Shown in pieces: positions 17,607 through 60,227 of a DNA stretch of 64,000 nt (its first letter is position 1; the number at the start of each line of letters is the position of its first letter). The translations under genes were made by a program, and so were the position numbers. The notes beneath the pieces are model-generated. The model saw nothing but the letters and a program-made list of their open reading frames with translations. It had not been told where the DNA came from and did not search any database. Location of the stretch: assembly GCA_964507855.1 (NCBI GenBank), contig CAZDQS010000001.1, positions 166,121 to 230,120 of the forward strand, read 5' to 3'. Source of the DNA: an uncultured Candidatus Saccharibacteria bacterium. GTDB taxonomy: Bacteria > Patescibacteriota > Saccharimonadia > Saccharimonadales > CAZDQS01.

Positions 17607-17723
17607 TTGAGAGGAGATGATTTCTCCTCTCAACGCGCCGGGCAGTCGAATAAATCGCCTACTCGGGCTGCTCTTCCCAAGCAGCGAAATCAATAAAGTT
17701 GAAGTGAATTCAACTTTATTGAT
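17607..17723 (+). repeat. intergenic structured repeat, copy A (three hairpin modules plus conserved core)
   Basis: Hairpin 1 is TTGAGAGGAGA/TCTCCTCTCAA. Core is CGCGCCGGGCAGTCGAATAAATCGCCTACTCGGGCTGCTCTTCCCAAGCAGC. There is a 15-bp perfect AT-rich hairpin at 17689-17723. The core recurs at 37981 and 57090 (reverse). Confidence 0.6.
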
Positions 17724-30320: not shown

Positions 30321-30428
30321 AGCAAGGAGTATACCAGGCTACGACTAGAAAGAATCAGTATGACGATATTGAAAACACAAATCTTTGGTGGGGGTGGAAG
30401 GAATTGAACCTTCGACCAATCGGTTATG

Positions 30429-31041
30429 CACGCCACTACAACTTTCGTTGCCTCTTTCGAGTTTGTGGTCCGGACTGTCTCTTCATCCGCCAGGTGGCGG
30501 ATGCCTGCCGTACAGTCTCTACACCTTCCTCGGCAGTAATGCCGGGGCTTGGCTCGGGATTGCCTTACCGCTGATGGCTATAGGGTTCCCCGAATTTGAC
30601 AGGATATACTTACTGGTTACCCGGTAAGCAGCCCTTAGTTTTTTGGCATATCTAAGATAACATGTAGTTATGAAGACTGGGTCTAACTGCCGAATTTGCC
30701 AGAAAAAACTGGCGGGTAAACAAACACTTTACTGTTCAGTACTCTGCAAGAACAAATTTCATCAATCCTACCCTTCACAGAAAAAGCGAGGGCTTGAACG
30801 AAAACTTCGTTTTGTCCGAGAACTTGGAGGAGAGTGCTCGCTTTGCGGCTACTCAGCTAATCTTGCCGCCTTAGTATTTCATCATGTAGGCGGCAAAGAA
30901 TTTCAACTGGACGTTCGTGCCTTGTCGAATCGTAAGCTGGAGCCAATTCTCAAAGAAGTAGCAAAATGCAAACTCCTTTGTCATAACTGCCATGCCGAGG
31001 TCCATAACCCCGGACTAGACTTAGCCAAATTGTTAACTACG
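30429..31041 (-). mobile_element. group I intron (IC3, Azoarcus tRNA-Ile-intron-like core)
   Basis: The 5' exon ends in U and the intron ends in G. The core GUCAAAUUCGGGGAACCCUAUAGC..GGCAAUCCCGAGCCAAGCCCCGG..GCCGAGGAAGGUGUAGAGACUGUACGGCAGG closely matches the remembered Azoarcus ribozyme sequence. Confidence 0.8.
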
Positions 31042-31056
31042 AGCCGACTGCTCTAA
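30670..31056 (+). CDS. HNH endonuclease (putative homing endonuclease), antisense to the intron
   Basis: CRIC...YCSVLC zinc ribbon and the HNH core CSLCG..LVFHHV.....N....L.KCKLLCHNCHAEVH. The last 15 nt overlap the tRNA 5' exon on the opposite strand. Confidence 0.8.
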   Translation: MKTGSNCRICQKKLAGKQTLYCSVLCKNKFHQSYPSQKKRGLERKLRFVRELGGECSLCGYSANLAALVFHHVGGKEFQLDVRALSNRKLEPILKEVAKCKLLCHNCHAEVHNPGLDLAKLLTTSRLL

Positions 31057-31222
31057 CCACTGAGCTACACCCCCCTGTCATCGACGTGTGATTTGTACGG
31101 TAGCTAGCGGCGTGTTCTGTCGCTTTTAGCTACCTTGTCATGCCGTCTTCTTCTATAAAGCTGTAAACCACTTGATTTACAGCTTTATGGTACAACCCAG
31201 TAACATCTGTGAGTATAGCAGA

Positions 31223-37753: not shown

Positions 37754-37909
37754 ATGGGTATATTCGGACTCGGCTCAAGCGCAAAGAAGACGGCCAAGAA
37801 AACCGCAGCCAAGGGCAAGAAGCCGGCAAAGGGCAGATCAAAAGACGCTCAGGAAGTCTTGGCTAAGATGAAGGCCAAGAAAGATTCCGGCGACTGCGCA
37901 TTCTGTTAA
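37754..37909 (+). CDS. small Lys-rich protein (51 aa) ending GDCAFC, hypothetical
   Basis: ATG preceded by GAAAGGGA; TATAAT at 37702-37707. Sequence MGIFGLGSSAKKTAKKTAAKGKKPAKGRSKDAQEVLAKMKAKKDSGDCAFC. Below the ORF-track length cutoff. Confidence 0.4.
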   Translation: MGIFGLGSSAKKTAKKTAAKGKKPAKGRSKDAQEVLAKMKAKKDSGDCAFC

Positions 37910-37911
37910 TA

Positions 37912-38071
37912 ATGAGAAAACCATTCGCAGCCCATTCGGCCTAATATAGGCGAACGGGGCCTCTGGATAGGTTTTCTCATCGCGCGGGACGGCCGAATAA
38001 ATCGTCCGTTCCGGCTGCTCTTTCCAAAGAAGCTGACAAGGAAATTCTGAAATAAATTCAGAATTTCCTTG
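37912..38071 (+). repeat. intergenic structured repeat, copy B
   Basis: Hairpin 1 is ATGAGAAAACC...GGTTTTCTCAT with a 47-nt insert. Core is CGCGCGGGACGGCCGAATAAATCGTCCGTTCCGGCTGCTCTTTCC. There is a 15-bp AT-rich hairpin at 38037-38071. Confidence 0.6.
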
Positions 38072-38160
38072 AATATAAGTTGTACGGCTCGTTCCGGTCT
38101 GCAGCAAGAACGACGATGCTGCATCCAAACACAGCGCTCTAGGCATCAGTTAAAGGCGTT

Positions 38161-38227
38161 ATCGCGCCGGCTGCTTTCCTACCAGCCTGATAATAAAAGT
38201 TTGGAGTGACTCCAGACTTTTATTAAG
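38161..38227 (+). repeat. intergenic structured repeat, short copy D (lacks the CGAATAAATCG hairpin)
   Basis: ATCGCGCC-GGCTGCTTTCCTACCAGCC followed by the hairpin ATAAAAGTTTGGA-GTGAC-TCCAGACTTTTAT. Confidence 0.45.
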
Positions 38228-42587: not shown

Positions 42588-43175
42588 ATGCCAGATATGC
42601 GTATCGCACCAATGGTAATCACCAGGCAAAACGAGCTGCCGCGCGGGGAAGATTGGATATATGAGCCAAAGCTCGACGGTTATAGAGCGGTCGGGTATGT
42701 AGCACTGGGTCGGGCGCGTTTAATCTCCCGTAGTGGCAACGACTTTACCAATCGATATACGACTGTTCGAGACCAGCTGCCTATTGCATTTGATGGCCAT
42801 GAAGTGGTCGTGGATGGCGAGTTGGTAGGATTTAACGAGGCCGGCCGTGAAGATATTAATGAGCTCAAACGTAAACACCCTCAGGTAATGTTGTTCCTCT
42901 TTGACTTACTTCATCTGGACCAAGATTCGACACTGCACTTGCCGCAGCAAGATAGGAGGCGAATACTGGAGGAGGTTTGTGCCCCACAAGAGAATGTTCG
43001 TCTTGTGCCACAGTTTACTGACCCTGACGACTTACTAGTCGCGGCCCAGCAGTTGGGGCTGGAGGGTATCGTCGCCAAGCGACTTTCGTCGGTATATCGT
43101 CCCGGAAAGAAAACACGCGATTGGGTAAAGCTGATTCTGAGAGACCATCCCGAACGTCGCGCCTGGAATCGATAA
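42588..43175 (+). CDS. ATP-dependent DNA ligase, nucleotidyltransferase domain only (no OB domain)
   Basis: Motif I EPKLDGYR, III VVVDGELV, IIIa FLFDLL, IV EGIVAK, V RDWVKLI. The ORF stops about 10 aa after motif V. Confidence 0.7.
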   Translation: MPDMRIAPMVITRQNELPRGEDWIYEPKLDGYRAVGYVALGRARLISRSGNDFTNRYTTVRDQLPIAFDGHEVVVDGELVGFNEAGREDINELKRKHPQVMLFLFDLLHLDQDSTLHLPQQDRRRILEEVCAPQENVRLVPQFTDPDDLLVAAQQLGLEGIVAKRLSSVYRPGKKTRDWVKLILRDHPERRAWNR

Positions 43176-43287
43176 GCGAAGGTACGCGCCATCTTTCTGG
43201 GTAGTCGTGCAGAGGGTTGCAAACAGTAGGGGTCTCATCTATTATCATAAGCATTGAGCTAAAGCGCTAGATAGGAAACAAAAACAT

Positions 43288-43761
43288 ATGCCACGACTCC
43301 CCAAACCCGGGTCAGACGAAAATACATGGGGTGACATCCTCAACGAATTTCTCACTGTAGCCCACAATGATAACGGTTCACTAAAGGACGTTGGAGTGGT
43401 AGCCCAAAAGTACGTCAAACCGGCGGGTGGTATTCCCGAGGCTGACTTGGCTACCGCAGTGCAAACAAAGCTTAATAGCGGCGCATCAGTGTCAGATGCC
43501 GATGCTACCACGAAGGGTATTGTTCGCCTCACTGGCGACCTTGGCGGTACGGCCGATAACCCCATGGTTCCCGGCTTGGCTGACAAGGCTGACGCGGCTA
43601 CACTTTCGTCGCACACAAACAGCACGACCAATGTACACGGCATTGCAGATACCAGCGCGTTGGTATCTGGCAGTGGTGTCACAAATATTGTCGTACTGAC
43701 ACAAGCAGCCTACGATGAACTGACACCGGATGATAATACACTGTACGTGGTGGTTGGGTAA
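43288..43761 (+). CDS. phage tail-fibre-like N-terminal domain protein
   Basis: MPRLPKPGSDENTWGDILNEFL..H..DGSLK opening recurs in actinobacterial prophage fibre/minor-tail proteins (recalled). Confidence 0.45.
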   Translation: MPRLPKPGSDENTWGDILNEFLTVAHNDNGSLKDVGVVAQKYVKPAGGIPEADLATAVQTKLNSGASVSDADATTKGIVRLTGDLGGTADNPMVPGLADKADAATLSSHTNSTTNVHGIADTSALVSGSGVTNIVVLTQAAYDELTPDDNTLYVVVG

Positions 43762-45407
43762 TGCCTCTTGTTGGGAATGTTGACGACTTAAACCTAGGTG
43801 CTCAGGCGGTACAGCGGCTGTATGTCGGCAATAACGAAGTCTGGCCGGCGGTCCCAGCATTGGCGGCCGCCGGGTGGTCGCGGCCTGACATGACAGGCGC
43901 TCAGACGGTAGTTGTCTCTGGCACCGATACGTTTGTAGCTGGCAATGGCGGGCCGGTGATTGTCCAGGTTGATGGGGTGCTCGAAAAAGGCCTGTTCATC
44001 GAGGAGGCTACTGATGTTCTGGTTGTCGGCGGACACATTAAGATCGATTTGCCCTGGTGGGAACAGCCCGGATGGTTCAAAAGCAATGCTAAGGCAGTTA
44101 ATATCAAGAACTGCACAGGTACGGTGCACCTTGAGGGTTTGTACGCGGAGGGGGCTGAACTCGAAGATTTTATCTATATAAATTCACCAACCGCAGTCGT
44201 GAAGGTTGTAAACTGCCGCGCAAAGCGCACGCGCGGACAGAATGAGGATAGCGGCAACTACGGGCATGCCGATGTGCTTCAAGTTTACGGCTGTAAAGAG
44301 CTGTGGGTAGACGGTTTGTCAGGAACCACCGGTTACCAGGGGATGTTTATTCATGACGAGCTAGGCCAGGGCGGAGATTACGTCACCTTGCGCCGTGTGT
44401 TCCTGGAAGGTATTGCGACTGACCTTGATGAAGCTCGCTGGATGTTGGCCCTGAATGATACCTTTGACCTCGTAGAGCTTGAAGATGTGTATGTTAAGCC
44501 ATCAAACCACCCCTCGCACAATACGCTTGCAAAAGCAGTCCGCCCACAAGCTGAAGGTGGAGGGTTTGTCTATCCATCAAAAGGCATAGCGACAGTCGTT
44601 GATGGCCGCAATACCGTACACTGGCCAGGGACCATGACACCGGTCGTCTTGGGTCGGGTTAATGAAGGCGATCCACCGTTTGGCGATCCGGTACCGTACG
44701 CGCGCGTTGGCCGCCGGTACGAAGCAGCGCCTCTGCCAGAGCCCAGAACTTTCCCTGATTTGGAAGTGCTGACCGATCTTGCGGTGGCAACAGGTATTGA
44801 TCCAGGCACCGACCCGGCAGTCATCACTATGCCAACGGAAGGTCTGCAAGACGGGGATCTCGTGGTCGTTGCGGTTGCCGCCGGGGGTACGGCGACAATT
44901 GTTACGCCCGAAGGCTTTTCGCTCGTCGATGACGCTACTGTGGCCGCCTCTTCTAACAACCCCAACTTCAAGGTGTACACCTATATAGTTACGGATGCAG
45001 ATAGCATGGAGGCTACAGCAACATTTGACCTGGGCTCGGCGGTACGTAGCGGTGCAATCGCAGTGCCAGTTCGCGGCGCAGAGCCAACTGGCCCGATAGA
45101 TGTAGCATCCAGCGGTGTCTGGGAAACCGGTACAACCGGCACGATTTCTTCAGCAACCACAACAGTAGATAACTGTCTTTTGCTTGCATTCGCCGCTTGG
45201 TCAAGCGCTCCTGGATTGACCATTACACCGCCCGAGTCCATGACGGCCATCGGTTCTACGCTCCTGACCGGCTTTGCCATGCACGCAGCCTATGAACAGC
45301 TTGGTGCAGCGGGTGAAACCGGAACCCGAGACTTTACGTCGTCCCTCGGCGGCAAAGGAACTGCCGGCATGGTAGCTATCCGCAAGCGCGTGAGCGCTGT
45401 TGAGTAG
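43761..45407 (+). CDS. large hypothetical protein, beta-helix-like, probable fibre or surface protein
   Basis: Start overlaps the previous stop (TAATG). N-terminus ..VQRLYVGNNEVWP. Repetitive beta-strand-rich middle region. Confidence 0.45.
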   Translation: MPLVGNVDDLNLGAQAVQRLYVGNNEVWPAVPALAAAGWSRPDMTGAQTVVVSGTDTFVAGNGGPVIVQVDGVLEKGLFIEEATDVLVVGGHIKIDLPWWEQPGWFKSNAKAVNIKNCTGTVHLEGLYAEGAELEDFIYINSPTAVVKVVNCRAKRTRGQNEDSGNYGHADVLQVYGCKELWVDGLSGTTGYQGMFIHDELGQGGDYVTLRRVFLEGIATDLDEARWMLALNDTFDLVELEDVYVKPSNHPSHNTLAKAVRPQAEGGGFVYPSKGIATVVDGRNTVHWPGTMTPVVLGRVNEGDPPFGDPVPYARVGRRYEAAPLPEPRTFPDLEVLTDLAVATGIDPGTDPAVITMPTEGLQDGDLVVVAVAAGGTATIVTPEGFSLVDDATVAASSNNPNFKVYTYIVTDADSMEATATFDLGSAVRSGAIAVPVRGAEPTGPIDVASSGVWETGTTGTISSATTTVDNCLLLAFAAWSSAPGLTITPPESMTAIGSTLLTGFAMHAAYEQLGAAGETGTRDFTSSLGGKGTAGMVAIRKRVSAVE

Positions 45408-45825: not shown

Positions 45826-45900
45826 TGGTAGCGGGGAGAGGACTCGAACCTCTGACCTCGTGGTTATGAGCCACGCGAGCTGCCGCTGCTCCACCCCGCG
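45826..45900 (-). tRNA. initiator tRNA-fMet (CAU)
   Basis: CGCGGGGTGGAGCAGCGGCAGCTCGCGTGGCTCATAACCACGAGGTCAGAGGTTCGAGTCCTCTCCCCGCTACCA. It has a 1:72 mismatch (C1/U72) and A11:U24, and the 5' end is identical to E. coli tRNA-fMet. Confidence 0.85.
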
Positions 45901-55302: not shown

Positions 55303-57084
55303 ATGGACCAGTCACGTATCAGAAATTTTTGTATTATTGCGCATATTGACCACGGCAAGTCGACGTTGGCCGACAGGCTGTTGGAGCTAACTGGCACGGT
55401 CGCGCAGCGGGAGATGAAGGCACAGCTCCTGGACAAGATGGACTTGGAGCGCGAAAAGGGCATCACGATTAAGCTGACGCCCGTACAGATGCGCTATCAA
55501 GACTATGAGCTGAACTTGATAGATACGCCCGGTCATGTGGACTTCAGCTATGAAGTGTCGCGCAGCCTTGAGGCGTGCGAGGGGGCGATTTTGGTGGTTG
55601 ACGCTACCCAGGGTATTCAAGCTCAGACACTTGCCAATGTGTATCTGGCTATGGGTGCTGACCTGACCATTATCCCGGTCTTGAACAAAATTGATCTGCC
55701 GGCTGCTGACGTGGAGCGGGTAAGCGGCGAGGTTATGAGCTTGCTCGGCTGCAAGAAAGAGGACATTTTGCTTATTTCCGCCAAGACAGGTCTGGGTGTC
55801 GAGACTGTACTGGAACGGGTTGTTGCTGACGTGCCGCCGCCTTCTGGCAAGACGGATGAGTCGGCGCGGGCGCTTATTTTTGACAGTTATTATGATGATT
55901 ACCGCGGTGTCATTCTCTATGTTCGCATGGTTGATGGCGCGATTGGAAAAAATGACAATATCCACATGATGTCTGCCGGCTCAAGCGGGATCGCCCTGGA
56001 AGTTGGTGCGCTTAGGCCTGAAATGGCACCGCTCCCCGCACTCCAGACGGGCGAGATTGGCTATATTGTCACCAACCTCAAGTCTACCCGCGAGGCGAGA
56101 GTCGGCGATACGGTCACGCTGGTCAAACAACCAGCCGCTCATCCCTTGCCGGGCTATCAGGACGTGAAGCCGTTTGTCTATGCCGGCTTCTTCCCGGACA
56201 GTAATGAGAATTACCAGTTGCTGAAAGAGGCGATTGAGAAGCTGTCACTCAGTGACTCAGCCTTGCAGTTTGCGCCTGAGAATTCGCCGGTACTTGGCTT
56301 TGGCGTGCGCATTGGATTCCTCGGCCTGCTGCACATGGACATCGTGCGCGAGCGGCTGGAGCGTGAATACGGGCTGGATCTGGTCGTCACCAACCCCTCG
56401 ACAGACTACCAGGTGGTGCTGGTGAATGGTGATGAGCTGAATATTAAATCTGCGGCGGAGTTGCCCGATGTTGCTAAAGTGGCTGAAATCCACGAGCCGT
56501 GGATCAACGGCGAGGTGGTCGTGCCGAAGGATTATGTCGGTGGGGTCATTCAGCTCATTGTTAGCAAGCGCGGGCGGCAGAAGAACTTAAGTTTTGTTGA
56601 TGCACAATTGGCGCTCGTTACATTCGAGGCGCCTCTCGCTAATTTGCTGACTGATTTTTATGACCAGCTCAAGAGCATCACGTCCGGGTACGGATCGTTT
56701 AATTATGAGCTGGCTGATTACCGGGCAGAAGATTTGGTGCGGCTTGACTTCTATGTTGCCGGAGAAATGGTTAGCGCGTTAAGTATTATGGTGCACCGTA
56801 GCGAGGCCCAGAGTGTTGGGCGTGAGACAGTTGCGAAGCTCAAGGAGGTTATTCCCCGTCAGAACTTCCAGGTGGCGCTGCAAGCGGCTGTGGGCGGCAA
56901 GTTCATTGCACGTGAAGACATCAGCGCTTTCCGCAAAGACGTGACAACCGGCCTTTACGGCGGCGACGTATCCCGCAAAAAGAAGGTCCTTGCCAAGCAG
57001 GCAAAAGGCAAGAAGCGCATGAAGCGGTTCGGCAAAGTAGACATCCCCGCCGAAGCTTTTACAGTGCTACTGAAAAGGGATTAA
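55303..57084 (+). CDS. lepA: elongation factor 4 (LepA)
   Basis: IRNFCIIAHIDHGKSTLADRLLE, DTPGHVDF, NKID, C-terminal LepA_C. The track start at 55198 lies inside murJ and was rejected. Confidence 0.95.
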   Translation: MDQSRIRNFCIIAHIDHGKSTLADRLLELTGTVAQREMKAQLLDKMDLEREKGITIKLTPVQMRYQDYELNLIDTPGHVDFSYEVSRSLEACEGAILVVDATQGIQAQTLANVYLAMGADLTIIPVLNKIDLPAADVERVSGEVMSLLGCKKEDILLISAKTGLGVETVLERVVADVPPPSGKTDESARALIFDSYYDDYRGVILYVRMVDGAIGKNDNIHMMSAGSSGIALEVGALRPEMAPLPALQTGEIGYIVTNLKSTREARVGDTVTLVKQPAAHPLPGYQDVKPFVYAGFFPDSNENYQLLKEAIEKLSLSDSALQFAPENSPVLGFGVRIGFLGLLHMDIVRERLEREYGLDLVVTNPSTDYQVVLVNGDELNIKSAAELPDVAKVAEIHEPWINGEVVVPKDYVGGVIQLIVSKRGRQKNLSFVDAQLALVTFEAPLANLLTDFYDQLKSITSGYGSFNYELADYRAEDLVRLDFYVAGEMVSALSIMVHRSEAQSVGRETVAKLKEVIPRQNFQVALQAAVGGKFIAREDISAFRKDVTTGLYGGDVSRKKKVLAKQAKGKKRMKRFGKVDIPAEAFTVLLKRD

Positions 57085-57089
57085 ATCCC

Positions 57090-57166
57090 ACAAGCTGGGG
57101 AGAGCAGCCGGAACGGGCGATTTATTCGACCGTCCCGCGCGATGAGAGGGGGCGTCCCCCTCTCAT
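57090..57166 (-). repeat. intergenic structured repeat, copy C (inverted orientation)
   Basis: The reverse complement reads ATGAGAGGGGG-ACG-CCCCCTCTCAT-CGCGCGGGACGGTCGAATAAATCGCCCGTTCCGGCTGCTCTCCCC, about 90% identical to the copy B core. Confidence 0.6.
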
Positions 57167-57179
57167 AAGGCGCAGCCGC

Positions 57180-57224
57180 GACATCCCCGCCGAAGCTTTT
57201 ACGGTACTCTTGAAGCGCGATTAG
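57180..57224 (+). other. displaced second copy of the lepA 3' terminus (DIPAEAFTVLLKRD-stop)
   Basis: 45 nt parallel to 57040-57084: the first 23 nt are identical, followed by 8 substitutions that are all synonymous, ending in TAG. Confidence 0.7.
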
Positions 57225-57317
57225 CAAAAGCAGTAAGTAACATTCTTAACAGACCACATACCAGCTGGCTTGTATGCTGTTGCTGCGGTTATGTAAAATA
57301 GAGAAGGAGATTACCGA

Positions 57318-57725
57318 ATGGATAAGAAGCAGTTTTTTCTCCACAAAGGCAACGCGCGCATCGCTGAAGCAGCATTTATTCTTATTGGTTTATTTTTATT
57401 CGCTGTGATAGGACATGTTGCGATGGGGCGGGCGCAGGACAAGGAGTCTGTGGTGGGTGTGCAGGAGTCGGTTGCTCAGGGACTTGAGGCAAACTTTCCT
57501 ATGACGGCTCGAAACGTACTTGCGCACACAGAAATGAGCGAGCTATCGCCCGTCGAAGTGTCGCCGACATCATCACGCCCAGGAAACAACGAAGATACAG
57601 ATGGGACAAAAGCACGCTCACGGTATCATAACCGTCACACCTCCCGGCGGCCGGTGCAAGTCGAAGATCGATTGCATATTGATGCCCGCTTGCGAGGACG
57701 TCTGGGCTCGAGTGTGCAAAATTGA
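57318..57725 (+). CDS. hypothetical membrane-anchored protein
   Basis: GGAG RBS, one TM helix, basic C-terminus. Confidence 0.4.
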   Translation: MDKKQFFLHKGNARIAEAAFILIGLFLFAVIGHVAMGRAQDKESVVGVQESVAQGLEANFPMTARNVLAHTEMSELSPVEVSPTSSRPGNNEDTDGTKARSRYHNRHTSRRPVQVEDRLHIDARLRGRLGSSVQN

Positions 57726-57747
57726 CGATTTATGTTATAAATATTAC

Positions 57748-58488
57748 ATGAAGGATACCAACACCAACACACTTGTCGCTGATGTGGCGGCGCTACTCGA
57801 TACATACAAACCATCGCAGGAAACGGTAAAGCTTGTCAGGGAGACTCCCGTTACGCTGCTAGTGGGAATTAGCGGGGCGGGAAAAGATACCATCAAACAT
57901 CGCTTACTCGAAATGGGTGAGTATCATCACATAGTGTCACACACTACACGTCAGCCGCGGATGAACGGTGGAGTGCTGGAGCGCGATGGCGAAGACTATC
58001 ACTTCATAGAACTCTCGGCTGCAAAGGCTATGCTCGAGAACGGCGCCTTTGTAGAGGCCAAGATGTATAGCGGTAACGTATATGGTACGAGTGTTAGCGA
58101 AATCCAGGCAGCTCACGATGATGGCAAGATTGCTCTCACGGACATAGAGGTCCAGGGCGTCGCCGAGTATAAGGCGATTTCAAAGGGCGTAATTGCGGTG
58201 TTTATTTTGCCCCCCGATTATGAGTCATGGCAAGAGCGGCTTAAGCGACGTTATGAGGGCGATGCAATTGACCCTGTTGATATGGCAAAGCGCATGCAGA
58301 CAGCTATATTGGAGTTGCAGCTTGCTCTCGAGTCGCCTTACTACCACTTCGTAGTCAATGATGACCTGGAGCAGGCGATTGAGATTGTGCACAAAATTGC
58401 GCATAACAGAGATATCTTTAATGAGAAGGACGCTGAAGTCAGGCAAAAGGCCGAAGAGCTTCTCTCTGCTATAAGGAAATTTGTCTAA
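57748..58488 (+). CDS. gmk: guanylate kinase-family protein with N-terminal extension
   Basis: P-loop GISGAGKDT, SHTTRQPR, YGTS, ILPP motifs. The track start at 57601 was rejected. Confidence 0.65.
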   Translation: MKDTNTNTLVADVAALLDTYKPSQETVKLVRETPVTLLVGISGAGKDTIKHRLLEMGEYHHIVSHTTRQPRMNGGVLERDGEDYHFIELSAAKAMLENGAFVEAKMYSGNVYGTSVSEIQAAHDDGKIALTDIEVQGVAEYKAISKGVIAVFILPPDYESWQERLKRRYEGDAIDPVDMAKRMQTAILELQLALESPYYHFVVNDDLEQAIEIVHKIAHNRDIFNEKDAEVRQKAEELLSAIRKFV

Positions 58489-58502: not shown

Positions 58503-58529
58503 CTGGCACTCTTGATTCATGAGTGCTAA
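58503..58529. promoter_or_regulatory. CIRCE operator (HrcA site), variant left arm
   Basis: CTGGCACTC-N9-GAGTGCTAA compared with the consensus TTAGCACTC-N9-GAGTGCTAA; lies 28 nt upstream of hrcA. Confidence 0.7.
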
Positions 58530-60153: not shown

Positions 60154-60227
60154 CTGGCACTCTTGACCTTTGACTGCTAATTTTTTATGCTAGAATTGTA
60201 TTAGCACTCAAACAACCTATCTGCTAA
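60154..60227. promoter_or_regulatory. two CIRCE-like operators flanking the dnaK promoter region
   Basis: CTGGCACTC-N9-GACTGCTAA at 60154-60180 and TTAGCACTC-N9-ATCTGCTAA at 60201-60227. TTGACC and TATGCT/TAGAAT hexamers lie between them. Confidence 0.55.

Follow-up and report, generated by a model that had tools for sequence, protein, structure and literature searches.

Site-specific insertions that restore the end of the gene they enter are known from the phages and islands of cultivated bacteria. In Escherichia coli, e14 occupies icd in such a way that the phage DNA completes icd, a fragment (icdC) lies on the far side, and excision amounts to a set of synonymous changes (PMC13626634). For lepA itself, integration of temperate phages has been reported from Latilactobacillus curvatus (PMC10688831), and cis-mobilizable elements (CIMEs) are defined by the retention of both attachment (att) sites, attL and attR, after loss of the integration and transfer genes (PMC5704250). 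Here we describe a duplicated 3’ terminus of lepA, the gene for LepA (EF4), in a 64,000-nt stretch of DNA from an uncultured Candidatus Saccharibacteria bacterium (hereafter the window), in which two ends encoding the same peptide lie on either side of 95 nt of non-coding, hairpin-forming DNA. With a probability of about 0.5, we consider the segment to have been left by a single-crossover (Campbell-type) insertion at the 3’ terminus of lepA. The locus would thus be a small, gene-free form of a known type of event, in a phylum where such events have hardly been described. Its parts, all on the + strand, are as follows.

55303–57084, + strand: lepA, encoding the 593-aa EF4; its last codons are the upstream copy of the terminus, the one that is translated
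57040–57062, + strand: R23 copy 1, the proposed crossover core on the attL side, encoding DIPAEAF and the first two bases of a Thr codon
57063–57084, + strand: D22, the putative replacement lepA end, A GTG CTA CTG AAA AGG GAT TAA, translated; it contains CTA and AGG, which are rare here (7% of Leu codons and 4% of Arg codons, respectively)
57077–57089, + strand: small hairpin GGGAT-TAA-ATCCC, identified by folding, a terminator scan and comparison of the 5’ flanks
57085–57179, + strand: 95-nt non-coding insert, made up of 9 nt, the hairpins P0 (57094–57108), P1 (57110–57136) and P2 (57142–57166), and a 13-nt tail, AAGGCGCAGCCGC
57180–57202, + strand: R23 copy 2, the second exact 23-mer, on the attR side; the Logan contig L012 begins at 57180
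57203–57224, + strand: E22, the displaced and probably original lepA end, G GTA CTC TTG AAG CGC GAT TAG, untranslated, with genome-typical codons

The locus resembles e14 at icd in several respects: direct repeats flank the insert, the reading frame is completed by apparently element-borne sequence, a native-like C-terminal fragment is left silent on the distal side, the two ends differ mostly by synonymous changes, and excision would swap the ends. The differences are of scale and content. Whereas e14 is ~15 kb long and has its own integrase, the lepA insert is 95 nt of non-coding DNA, and no recombinase was found either in it or in the window; the icd patch has two amino-acid changes and the lepA patch has none. 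Like a CIME, the lepA unit keeps direct-repeat, att-like sites around DNA without integration or transfer genes, but CIMEs are recognizably derived from integrative and conjugative elements (ICEs), while the lepA unit consists of 140 bp and contains a resident hairpin repeat. The CIMEs described so far measure kilobases, as do integrative elements, and a complete mobile element of 140 bp would be much smaller than these. No related full-length element was found, the insert having no match in the phage and plasmid collections, and no cognate ICE or integrative and mobilizable element is known in this organism. Islands in tRNA and transfer-messenger RNA (tmRNA) genes likewise carry a replacement 3’ end and leave a partial copy as a scar; here, however, the target is protein-coding, so that the patch can drift synonymously, and no island is present at lepA. 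The 95-nt cargo is also similar to repetitive extragenic palindromes (REPs), bacterial interspersed mosaic elements (BIMEs) and miniature inverted-repeat transposable elements (MITEs), as it belongs to a multi-copy, species-specific hairpin family located near gene ends and showing compensatory stem changes. Such repeats, in contrast, do not normally duplicate and recode the end of a neighboring gene, and we found neither terminal inverted repeats nor target duplications at the other two copies of the family, nor a transposase, including a REP-associated tyrosine transposase (RAYT), in the window. By analogy with these systems, it is about an even bet that the lepA locus is an att-flanked scar or miniature unit of the e14/CIME kind.

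Separately, we inspected 26 predicted proviruses of other bacteria in IMG/VR (L026–L051). All 26 carry a full-length lepA (LepA 49–53% identical over the whole length), which is the outermost gene in 19 of them, with the contig ending within 30 nt of its stop codon; none of the 26 carries a lepA fragment, and the set is therefore uninformative on 3’-end integration.

Results

The two copies of the lepA terminus (57040–57084 and 57180–57224), whose sequences had been quoted correctly in a preliminary description of this DNA, encode the same peptide, DIPAEAFTVLLKRD, followed by a stop codon in both. The first 23 nt of each copy, GACATCCCCGCCGAAGCTTTTAC (R23), are identical. This 23-mer has only two sites in the window even with 3 mismatches allowed, where none is expected by chance, and the two sites are exact direct repeats whose starts lie 140 nt apart and which flank a 117-nt unique segment. 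The last 22 nt of the upstream copy (D22) and of the downstream copy (E22) differ at 8 positions, of which six are third-codon positions, one is the first position of a Leu codon and one the first position of an Arg codon; all 8 differences are synonymous. In a simulation, 8 random substitutions in 22 nt preserved the peptide and the stop codon about once in 100,000 trials (p ~1e-5); the pattern of 23 identical nucleotides followed by 8 synonymous substitutions had been noted previously. The confinement of all 8 differences to the last 22 nt, given the sites that can change synonymously, has p ~0.007. The present order is accordingly lepA-R23-D22-[95 nt]-R23-E22. There is no third lepA end anywhere in the window, and a survey of 73 open reading frames (ORFs) for other duplicated termini, of the kind that the preliminary description had proposed for the whole genome, left lepA as the sole case.

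The 140-nt offset puts the downstream copy in the +2 frame of lepA, and no frame of at least 30 aa that runs through it has a start codon; the possibility that it belongs to a real overlapping gene thus did not hold. The +2 frame that holds the second lepA end is open for 103 codons (56916–57224, + strand), through the insert and back into lepA, and crosses the Lys codons AAA AAG at 56966–56971; it has no start codon and shows no sign of use. The LepA tail is invariant throughout the clade, with the last residues ...RFGKVDIPAEAFTV(M/L)LKRD, and the synonymous-only divergence therefore shows selection on the peptide, not necessarily two working chromosomal lineages. The earlier proposal that both copies evolved as functional lepA termini in different lineages is weakened accordingly. 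The D22 end also takes part in the small hairpin, which the preliminary description had drawn as GGGATT-TA-AATCCC. The hairpin is real, but ViennaRNA folds it as GGGAT (57077–57081), the loop TAA (57082–57084, the lepA stop codon) and ATCCC (57085–57089); on the minus strand it is followed by TTTTC and looks terminator-like.

We then asked which of the two ends is native by comparing codon usage and related lepA genes. Scored on its seven codons against the genes in the window, E22 is favored over D22 by a likelihood ratio of ~22, and the codons of E22 are common ones. This points, modestly, to the distal silent E22 as the original end, as the Campbell model predicts. In five related lineages, whose LepA proteins are 82–90% identical to that of the window, the next gene follows directly 3’ of lepA with no insert or repeat in between. 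The lepA ends of these relatives differ from one another and from both window copies by synonymous changes, and D22 is closer to the end of one of them (lineage L005, 4 nt differences) than to E22 (8 differences). Each of the five genes also differs from the window at 2–5 positions within the R23 stretch, and since relatives vary there, the perfect identity of the two R23 copies is not simple conservation. Judged from these alignments, identity over R23 beside a divergence of 8/22 is best taken as a real mosaic boundary, with a chance of ~1–3% of arising otherwise. The comparison with relatives, which the preliminary description had put forward, thus yielded both the absence of the insert from five lineages and the variability of the R23 region. 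Its proposal that the 23-mer is the crossover core gains from the sharp switch from 0/23 to 8/22 differences, which argues for a crossover or identity core; that a crossover took place within it is probable at best.

The whole structure is present in DNA from other sequencing runs. The following gene supplied the query with which we fetched contigs of the same species.

57318–57725, + strand: next gene 3’ of lepA, 135 aa, no Pfam match

Its product is also encoded on four Logan contigs, from the runs SRR7082968, SRR7082976, SRR7082982 and SRR7082984. Two of these are identical to the window at 100% across the locus, namely L013 (SRR7082984) over 56547–58474 and L014 (SRR7082976) over 56525–58362, so that the entire duplication is reproduced in two independent k-mer assemblies. 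This excludes a bin-specific or strain-chimeric misassembly, the latter having been raised as an alternative when the locus was first described. The contig L012 (SRR7082982) represents a second strain of the same species, with 3 single-nucleotide polymorphisms (SNPs) in 3,331 nt (T>C at 57294, G>A at 57446 and C>T at 58158; ~99.9% identity). Its sequence starts at 57180, which is exactly where the second R23 begins. Logan contigs are built with a k=31 graph, in which SNP bubbles are popped and a 140-nt indel is retained. If filled and empty alleles occurred in one sample, the k=31 paths would converge at the 31-mer that starts at 57180, and the start of L012 thus hints, indirectly, at a coexisting empty lepA allele. 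A protein search with the LepA C-terminal 185 aa for fragments of the same species returned no 100% fragments; cut products are evidently absent from that database. An exact look-up of LepA likewise gave no record, and a literature search on the sequencing runs found nothing. The fourth contig, L015 (SRR7082968), begins at 57254, within an imperfect palindrome (57248–57281).

The insert between the two ends contains no ORF and is one of three copies of a hairpin repeat, as the preliminary description had recognized from the similarities at 17.6 and 38.0 kb. Positions 57101–57147 are 96% identical to 38021–37975 (minus strand), with 2 changes in 47 nt, and positions 57116–57149 are 88% identical to 17659–17626 (minus strand). 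The three copies, designated A, B and C (the lepA copy), are detected by nhmmer with E-values between 1e-17 and 5e-19, and no other copy in the window reaches significance.

17607–17723, – strand: repeat copy A, with an AT-rich hairpin (17689–17723), P0–P1 (17628–17685) and P2 arms (17607–17617 and 17623–17633)
37912–38071, – strand: repeat copy B, with an AT-rich hairpin (38037–38071), P0–P1 (37975–38031) and a long P2 with arms at 37912–37922 and 37970–37980

Copy A is located between a Mur-ligase gene and a histidine-kinase gene. Copy B lies directly against the stop codon of a conserved + strand gene of 51 aa, and is identical in four Logan contigs of the same species. The repeat unit is a series of hairpins: a 5’ hairpin, P0, P1 and P2. 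In copies A and B the 5’ hairpin is AT-rich, 15 bp long and homologous with compensating changes, while in copy C its position is held by the hairpin GGGAT-TAA-ATCCC, whose loop is the lepA stop codon. The P1 loop, CGATTTATTCG, is conserved, and P2 varies at its top but keeps the same base, TGAGA/TCTCA. When the three copies are compared, P1 contains 3 compensatory pairs changed on both sides and 2 positions that never pair (conserved mismatches). This covariation, seen in three sequences only, supports a selected hairpin and does not tell apart DNA from RNA action or one strand from the other. Fold z-scores range from -3.2 to -6.5 on the strand of copy C and from -4.4 to -7.5 on the opposite strand. 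In having three similar, intergenic, hairpin-forming copies, the family is REP- or MITE-like; at copies A and B we found neither direct repeats in the flanks nor inverted repeats at the termini.

The family appears to be species-specific within the sequences covered. Rfam 15, run over the whole window at gathering thresholds, gave no family for any repeat copy, and at E-values up to 10 both repeat sites gave only chance-level matches. A scan for the pattern GCAGCC-N9-CGATTTATTCG-N9-GCG returned 3 matches in 185,579 GTDB species genomes, none in IMG/VR and 4 in JGI metagenomes, all attributable to chance and all in unrelated sequence lacking the hairpin complement. An nhmmer profile of the repeat found nothing at six related loci, one of which was a 13-kb contig from a relative, and the 185-nt region had no match in the phage and plasmid collections.

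We also considered whether the repeat extends into the 23-mer, as the 13-nt tail of the insert resembles the flank of copy B (11/13, p=0.05). The resemblance was judged coincidental because the flank encodes the conserved C-terminus of a real gene. This gene (37754–37909, + strand) encodes the 51-aa lysine-rich protein MGIFGLG...KMKAKKDSGDCAFC, which belongs to no Pfam family; its N- and C-termini are conserved in three other assemblies (55–67% identity), and 2 nt separate its stop codon from the foot of P2 in copy B. Beside copy B there is also a degenerate fourth copy (~38150–38225, – strand), consisting of a 17-bp AT-rich hairpin (38191–38225) and then TCAGGCTGGTAGGAAAGCAGCCGG followed directly by CGCGAT; it corresponds to a unit without the P1 hairpin and is not significant by nhmmer.

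Discussion

In the Campbell-type insertion that we favor, a small DNA molecule carrying a stretch identical to R23 of lepA, its own last seven codons and stop codon (D22), and ~95 nt of non-coding DNA would have recombined with the chromosome within R23. LepA would thereby have been completed by the incoming D22 with its amino acids unchanged, and the original end, E22, would have been displaced 140 nt downstream, where it is out of frame and silent. D22 would have been kept for the LepA peptide while drifting away from the codon usage of this chromosome, like the gene-end patches of integrative elements. The ends of the element would be R23-D22-ATCCCACAAGCT... on the left and ...GGCGCAGCCGC-R23 on the right. 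The present unit might be either a decayed larger integrative element that keeps both attachment sites, similar to a CIME, or a non-autonomous unit of very small size. If the two 23-nt repeats recombined, the unit would be cleanly removed and a normal lepA restored, and the 140-bp unit would in that sense be mobile. The predicted empty site is ...GGCAAAGTA-GACATCCCCGCCGAAGCTTTTAC-GGTACTCTTGAAGCGCGATTAG (i.e., lepA...AAAGTA-R23-GGTACTC), and the predicted junction of a circle or tandem is ...AAGGCGCAGCCGC-GACATCCCCGCCGAAGCTTTTAC-AGTGCTACTGAAAAGG (equivalently, ...GGCGCAGCCGC-R23-AGTGCTACTG). Since 23 bp is short for RecA, a site-specific recombinase would be the more plausible agent.

Several observations weigh against this account. 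First, there are no integrase, resolvase or transposase Pfam matches among the ~70 ORFs of the window, and the 23-mer shows, by eye, no obvious inverted-repeat core of the type found in tyrosine-recombinase sites. Second, the cargo is almost exactly one resident repeat unit and is 96% identical to copy B, which would not be expected of a randomly decayed island; a local cargo is thus combined with a 22-nt gene end of foreign appearance. Third, neither copy A nor copy B is associated with a gene-end duplication or with att-like repeats. At last, the searched collections contain no close relative (>86% LepA identity) showing the ancestral state, and no empty-site junction was seen in the contigs compared, for which the break in L012 is an indirect sign. 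The preliminary description had proposed an inserting element that brings its own gene end. The anatomy agrees with this proposal but the lack of a recombinase in the window does not, and because copies A and B are without duplicated ends or flanking direct repeats, the repeat family is not in general such an element.

These same points, that is, the missing recombinase, the resident-repeat cargo and the att-free copies A and B, keep alive a reading in which the mobile unit is the repeat itself. The 140-bp unit would then never have been larger: the hairpin repeat would be a non-autonomous, miniature integrative element, moved in trans and still inserting and excising in the population. We regard this as unlikely, if slightly less so than the other alternatives. 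It accounts for an insert that comprises about one repeat unit and nothing else, and the 96% identity to copy B indicates recent copying. The stop-codon hairpin occupies the position of the 5’ hairpin of the family, as if the patch were fitted to the element, and the break in L012 suggests filled and empty alleles together. However, copies A and B lack both flanking direct repeats and gene-end patches, the window encodes no recombinase, double-stranded DNA does not readily close into a circle as small as 140 bp, and the family occurs in no other genome scanned, which leaves no independent insertion for comparison. It is accordingly doubtful that the lepA copy is a complete 140-bp miniature integrative element with a 23-bp core, a 22-nt recoded patch, three hairpins and a recombinase encoded elsewhere, and that it is still polymorphic.

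An imported allele is another improbable explanation. Here, the lepA 3’ region of a related lineage would have entered by homologous recombination on the left and been joined on the right by an illegitimate junction just upstream of the resident 23-mer, the 23-nt identity being a coincidence or the product of later conversion. The resemblance of D22 to the ends of other lineages, as seen in its smaller distance to the L005 lineage than to E22, is what this explanation would predict, and given the clade-invariant LepA tail any foreign end would look synonymous-only. Against this, the variation of the five relatives within the 23-mer makes identity by chance a matter of ~1–3%, and the junction shows no microhomology (GCAGCCGC/GACATC vs AAAGTA/GACATC). 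Furthermore, the imported DNA would include a species-specific repeat that is 96% like a resident copy, which a donor differing at 8/22 positions should not carry.

We find it very hard to reconcile the data with a local origin, in which a 45-bp duplication accompanied the insertion of the repeat, by a long target duplication or template switching, and the upstream copy then diverged, or with use of the second copy through a -1 frameshift. The 103-codon open frame that holds the second copy, together with its AAA AAG Lys codons noticed by eye, would be compatible with these ideas. Nevertheless, divergence that depends on time would not put 8 synonymous changes into 22 nt while sparing the neighboring 23 nt and altering only 2 of 47 nt in the repeat, and a silent downstream copy should have gathered non-synonymous changes, of which it has none. 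As for a frameshift, neither a slippery heptamer nor a suitably spaced stimulatory structure is present, and the shifted protein would end without the basic tail that LepA conserves. Finally, an assembly artefact joining two strains through their shared 23-mer, which might be suspected in a metagenome-assembled genome of a species with a second strain (L012, with its 3 SNPs), is scarcely credible, as the entire structure recurs at 100% identity in two independent assemblies of other runs, the 23-nt repeat is shorter than assembler k-mers, and the junction GCAGCCGC-GACATCC requires real reads for any assembler.

Two further candidates were rejected. A diversity-generating retroelement does not fit the mismatches between the two ends (A,G,A,C,A,A,G,A vs G,A,C,T,G,C,C,G), which are not adenine-specific, and the window contains no reverse transcriptase domain. 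Miniatures derived from insertion sequences (IS) of the IS200/IS605 type would all be inserted 3’ of one and the same tetra- or pentanucleotide. R23 has TTAC as its last four bases, but copies A, B and C are not alike in their left flanks, and no TnpA or TnpB is encoded in the window.

If the Campbell-type insertion into lepA is correct, gene-end-restoring site-specific insertion, as known from the phages and islands of cultivated bacteria, would also operate in Saccharibacteria, members of the candidate phyla radiation (CPR), and lepA would be a target there too. The footprint of such an event might shrink to, or exist as, a gene-free unit of 140 bp that ordinary annotation misses. Should the unit instead be a miniature element, it would be one in a phylum whose mobile elements are barely known. 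The filled and empty forms of lepA would provide a clean population marker for the SRR70829xx samples, and the 23-bp candidate attachment site could guide the search for a recombinase in a group currently without genetic tools. The result leaves knowledge of LepA itself unchanged and opens no long-standing question.

Neighboring genes and other features of the window

The ORF ending at 57084 is lepA. In a protein search its 593-aa product matched hundreds of 593-aa LepA proteins of Saccharimonadia (TM7, Patescibacteria) with the LepA_C Pfam domain at 82–86% identity, and gave a single 100% match (P0001), from one NCBI contig of 309,811 nt. The gene order is murJ, lepA, one or two variable genes, guanylate kinase, hrcA, grpE and dnaK, and is the same in related genomes. 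Inverted repeats similar to CIRCE (controlling inverted repeat of chaperone expression), of the form TTAGCACTC-N9-GAGTGCTAA with 2–3 mismatches, are located at 58503–58529, 60154–60180 and 60201–60227. They lie upstream of hrcA and dnaK, in the classical layout of the HrcA heat-shock operator; none is expected by chance. A CIRCE operator inside D22 had been considered and was rejected, as the real CIRCE sites are those upstream of hrcA and dnaK.

Elsewhere in the window, a tRNA(CAU) gene (30386–31074, – strand) is split in the anticodon loop by a group I intron of ~613 nt. The Rfam family Intron_gpI matches 30448–30657 with 54 bits, and inspection by eye gave GGGGGTGTAGCTCAGTGGTTAGAGCAGTCGGCT and CATAACCGATTGGTCGAAGGTTCAATTCCTTCCACCCCCACCA as the exon halves; the gene is not called by ARAGORN. 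On the opposite strand, the intron contains a 128-aa ORF (30670–31056, + strand) with no Pfam match. A further group of genes at 42588–45407, just before a tRNA-Met gene (45826–45900, – strand), encodes three proteins: one of 195 aa with an ATP-dependent DNA ligase domain, one of 157 aa with a phage tail tip domain, and one of 548 aa that matches no Pfam family; these genes may be the remnant of a phage or of a tail-like element.

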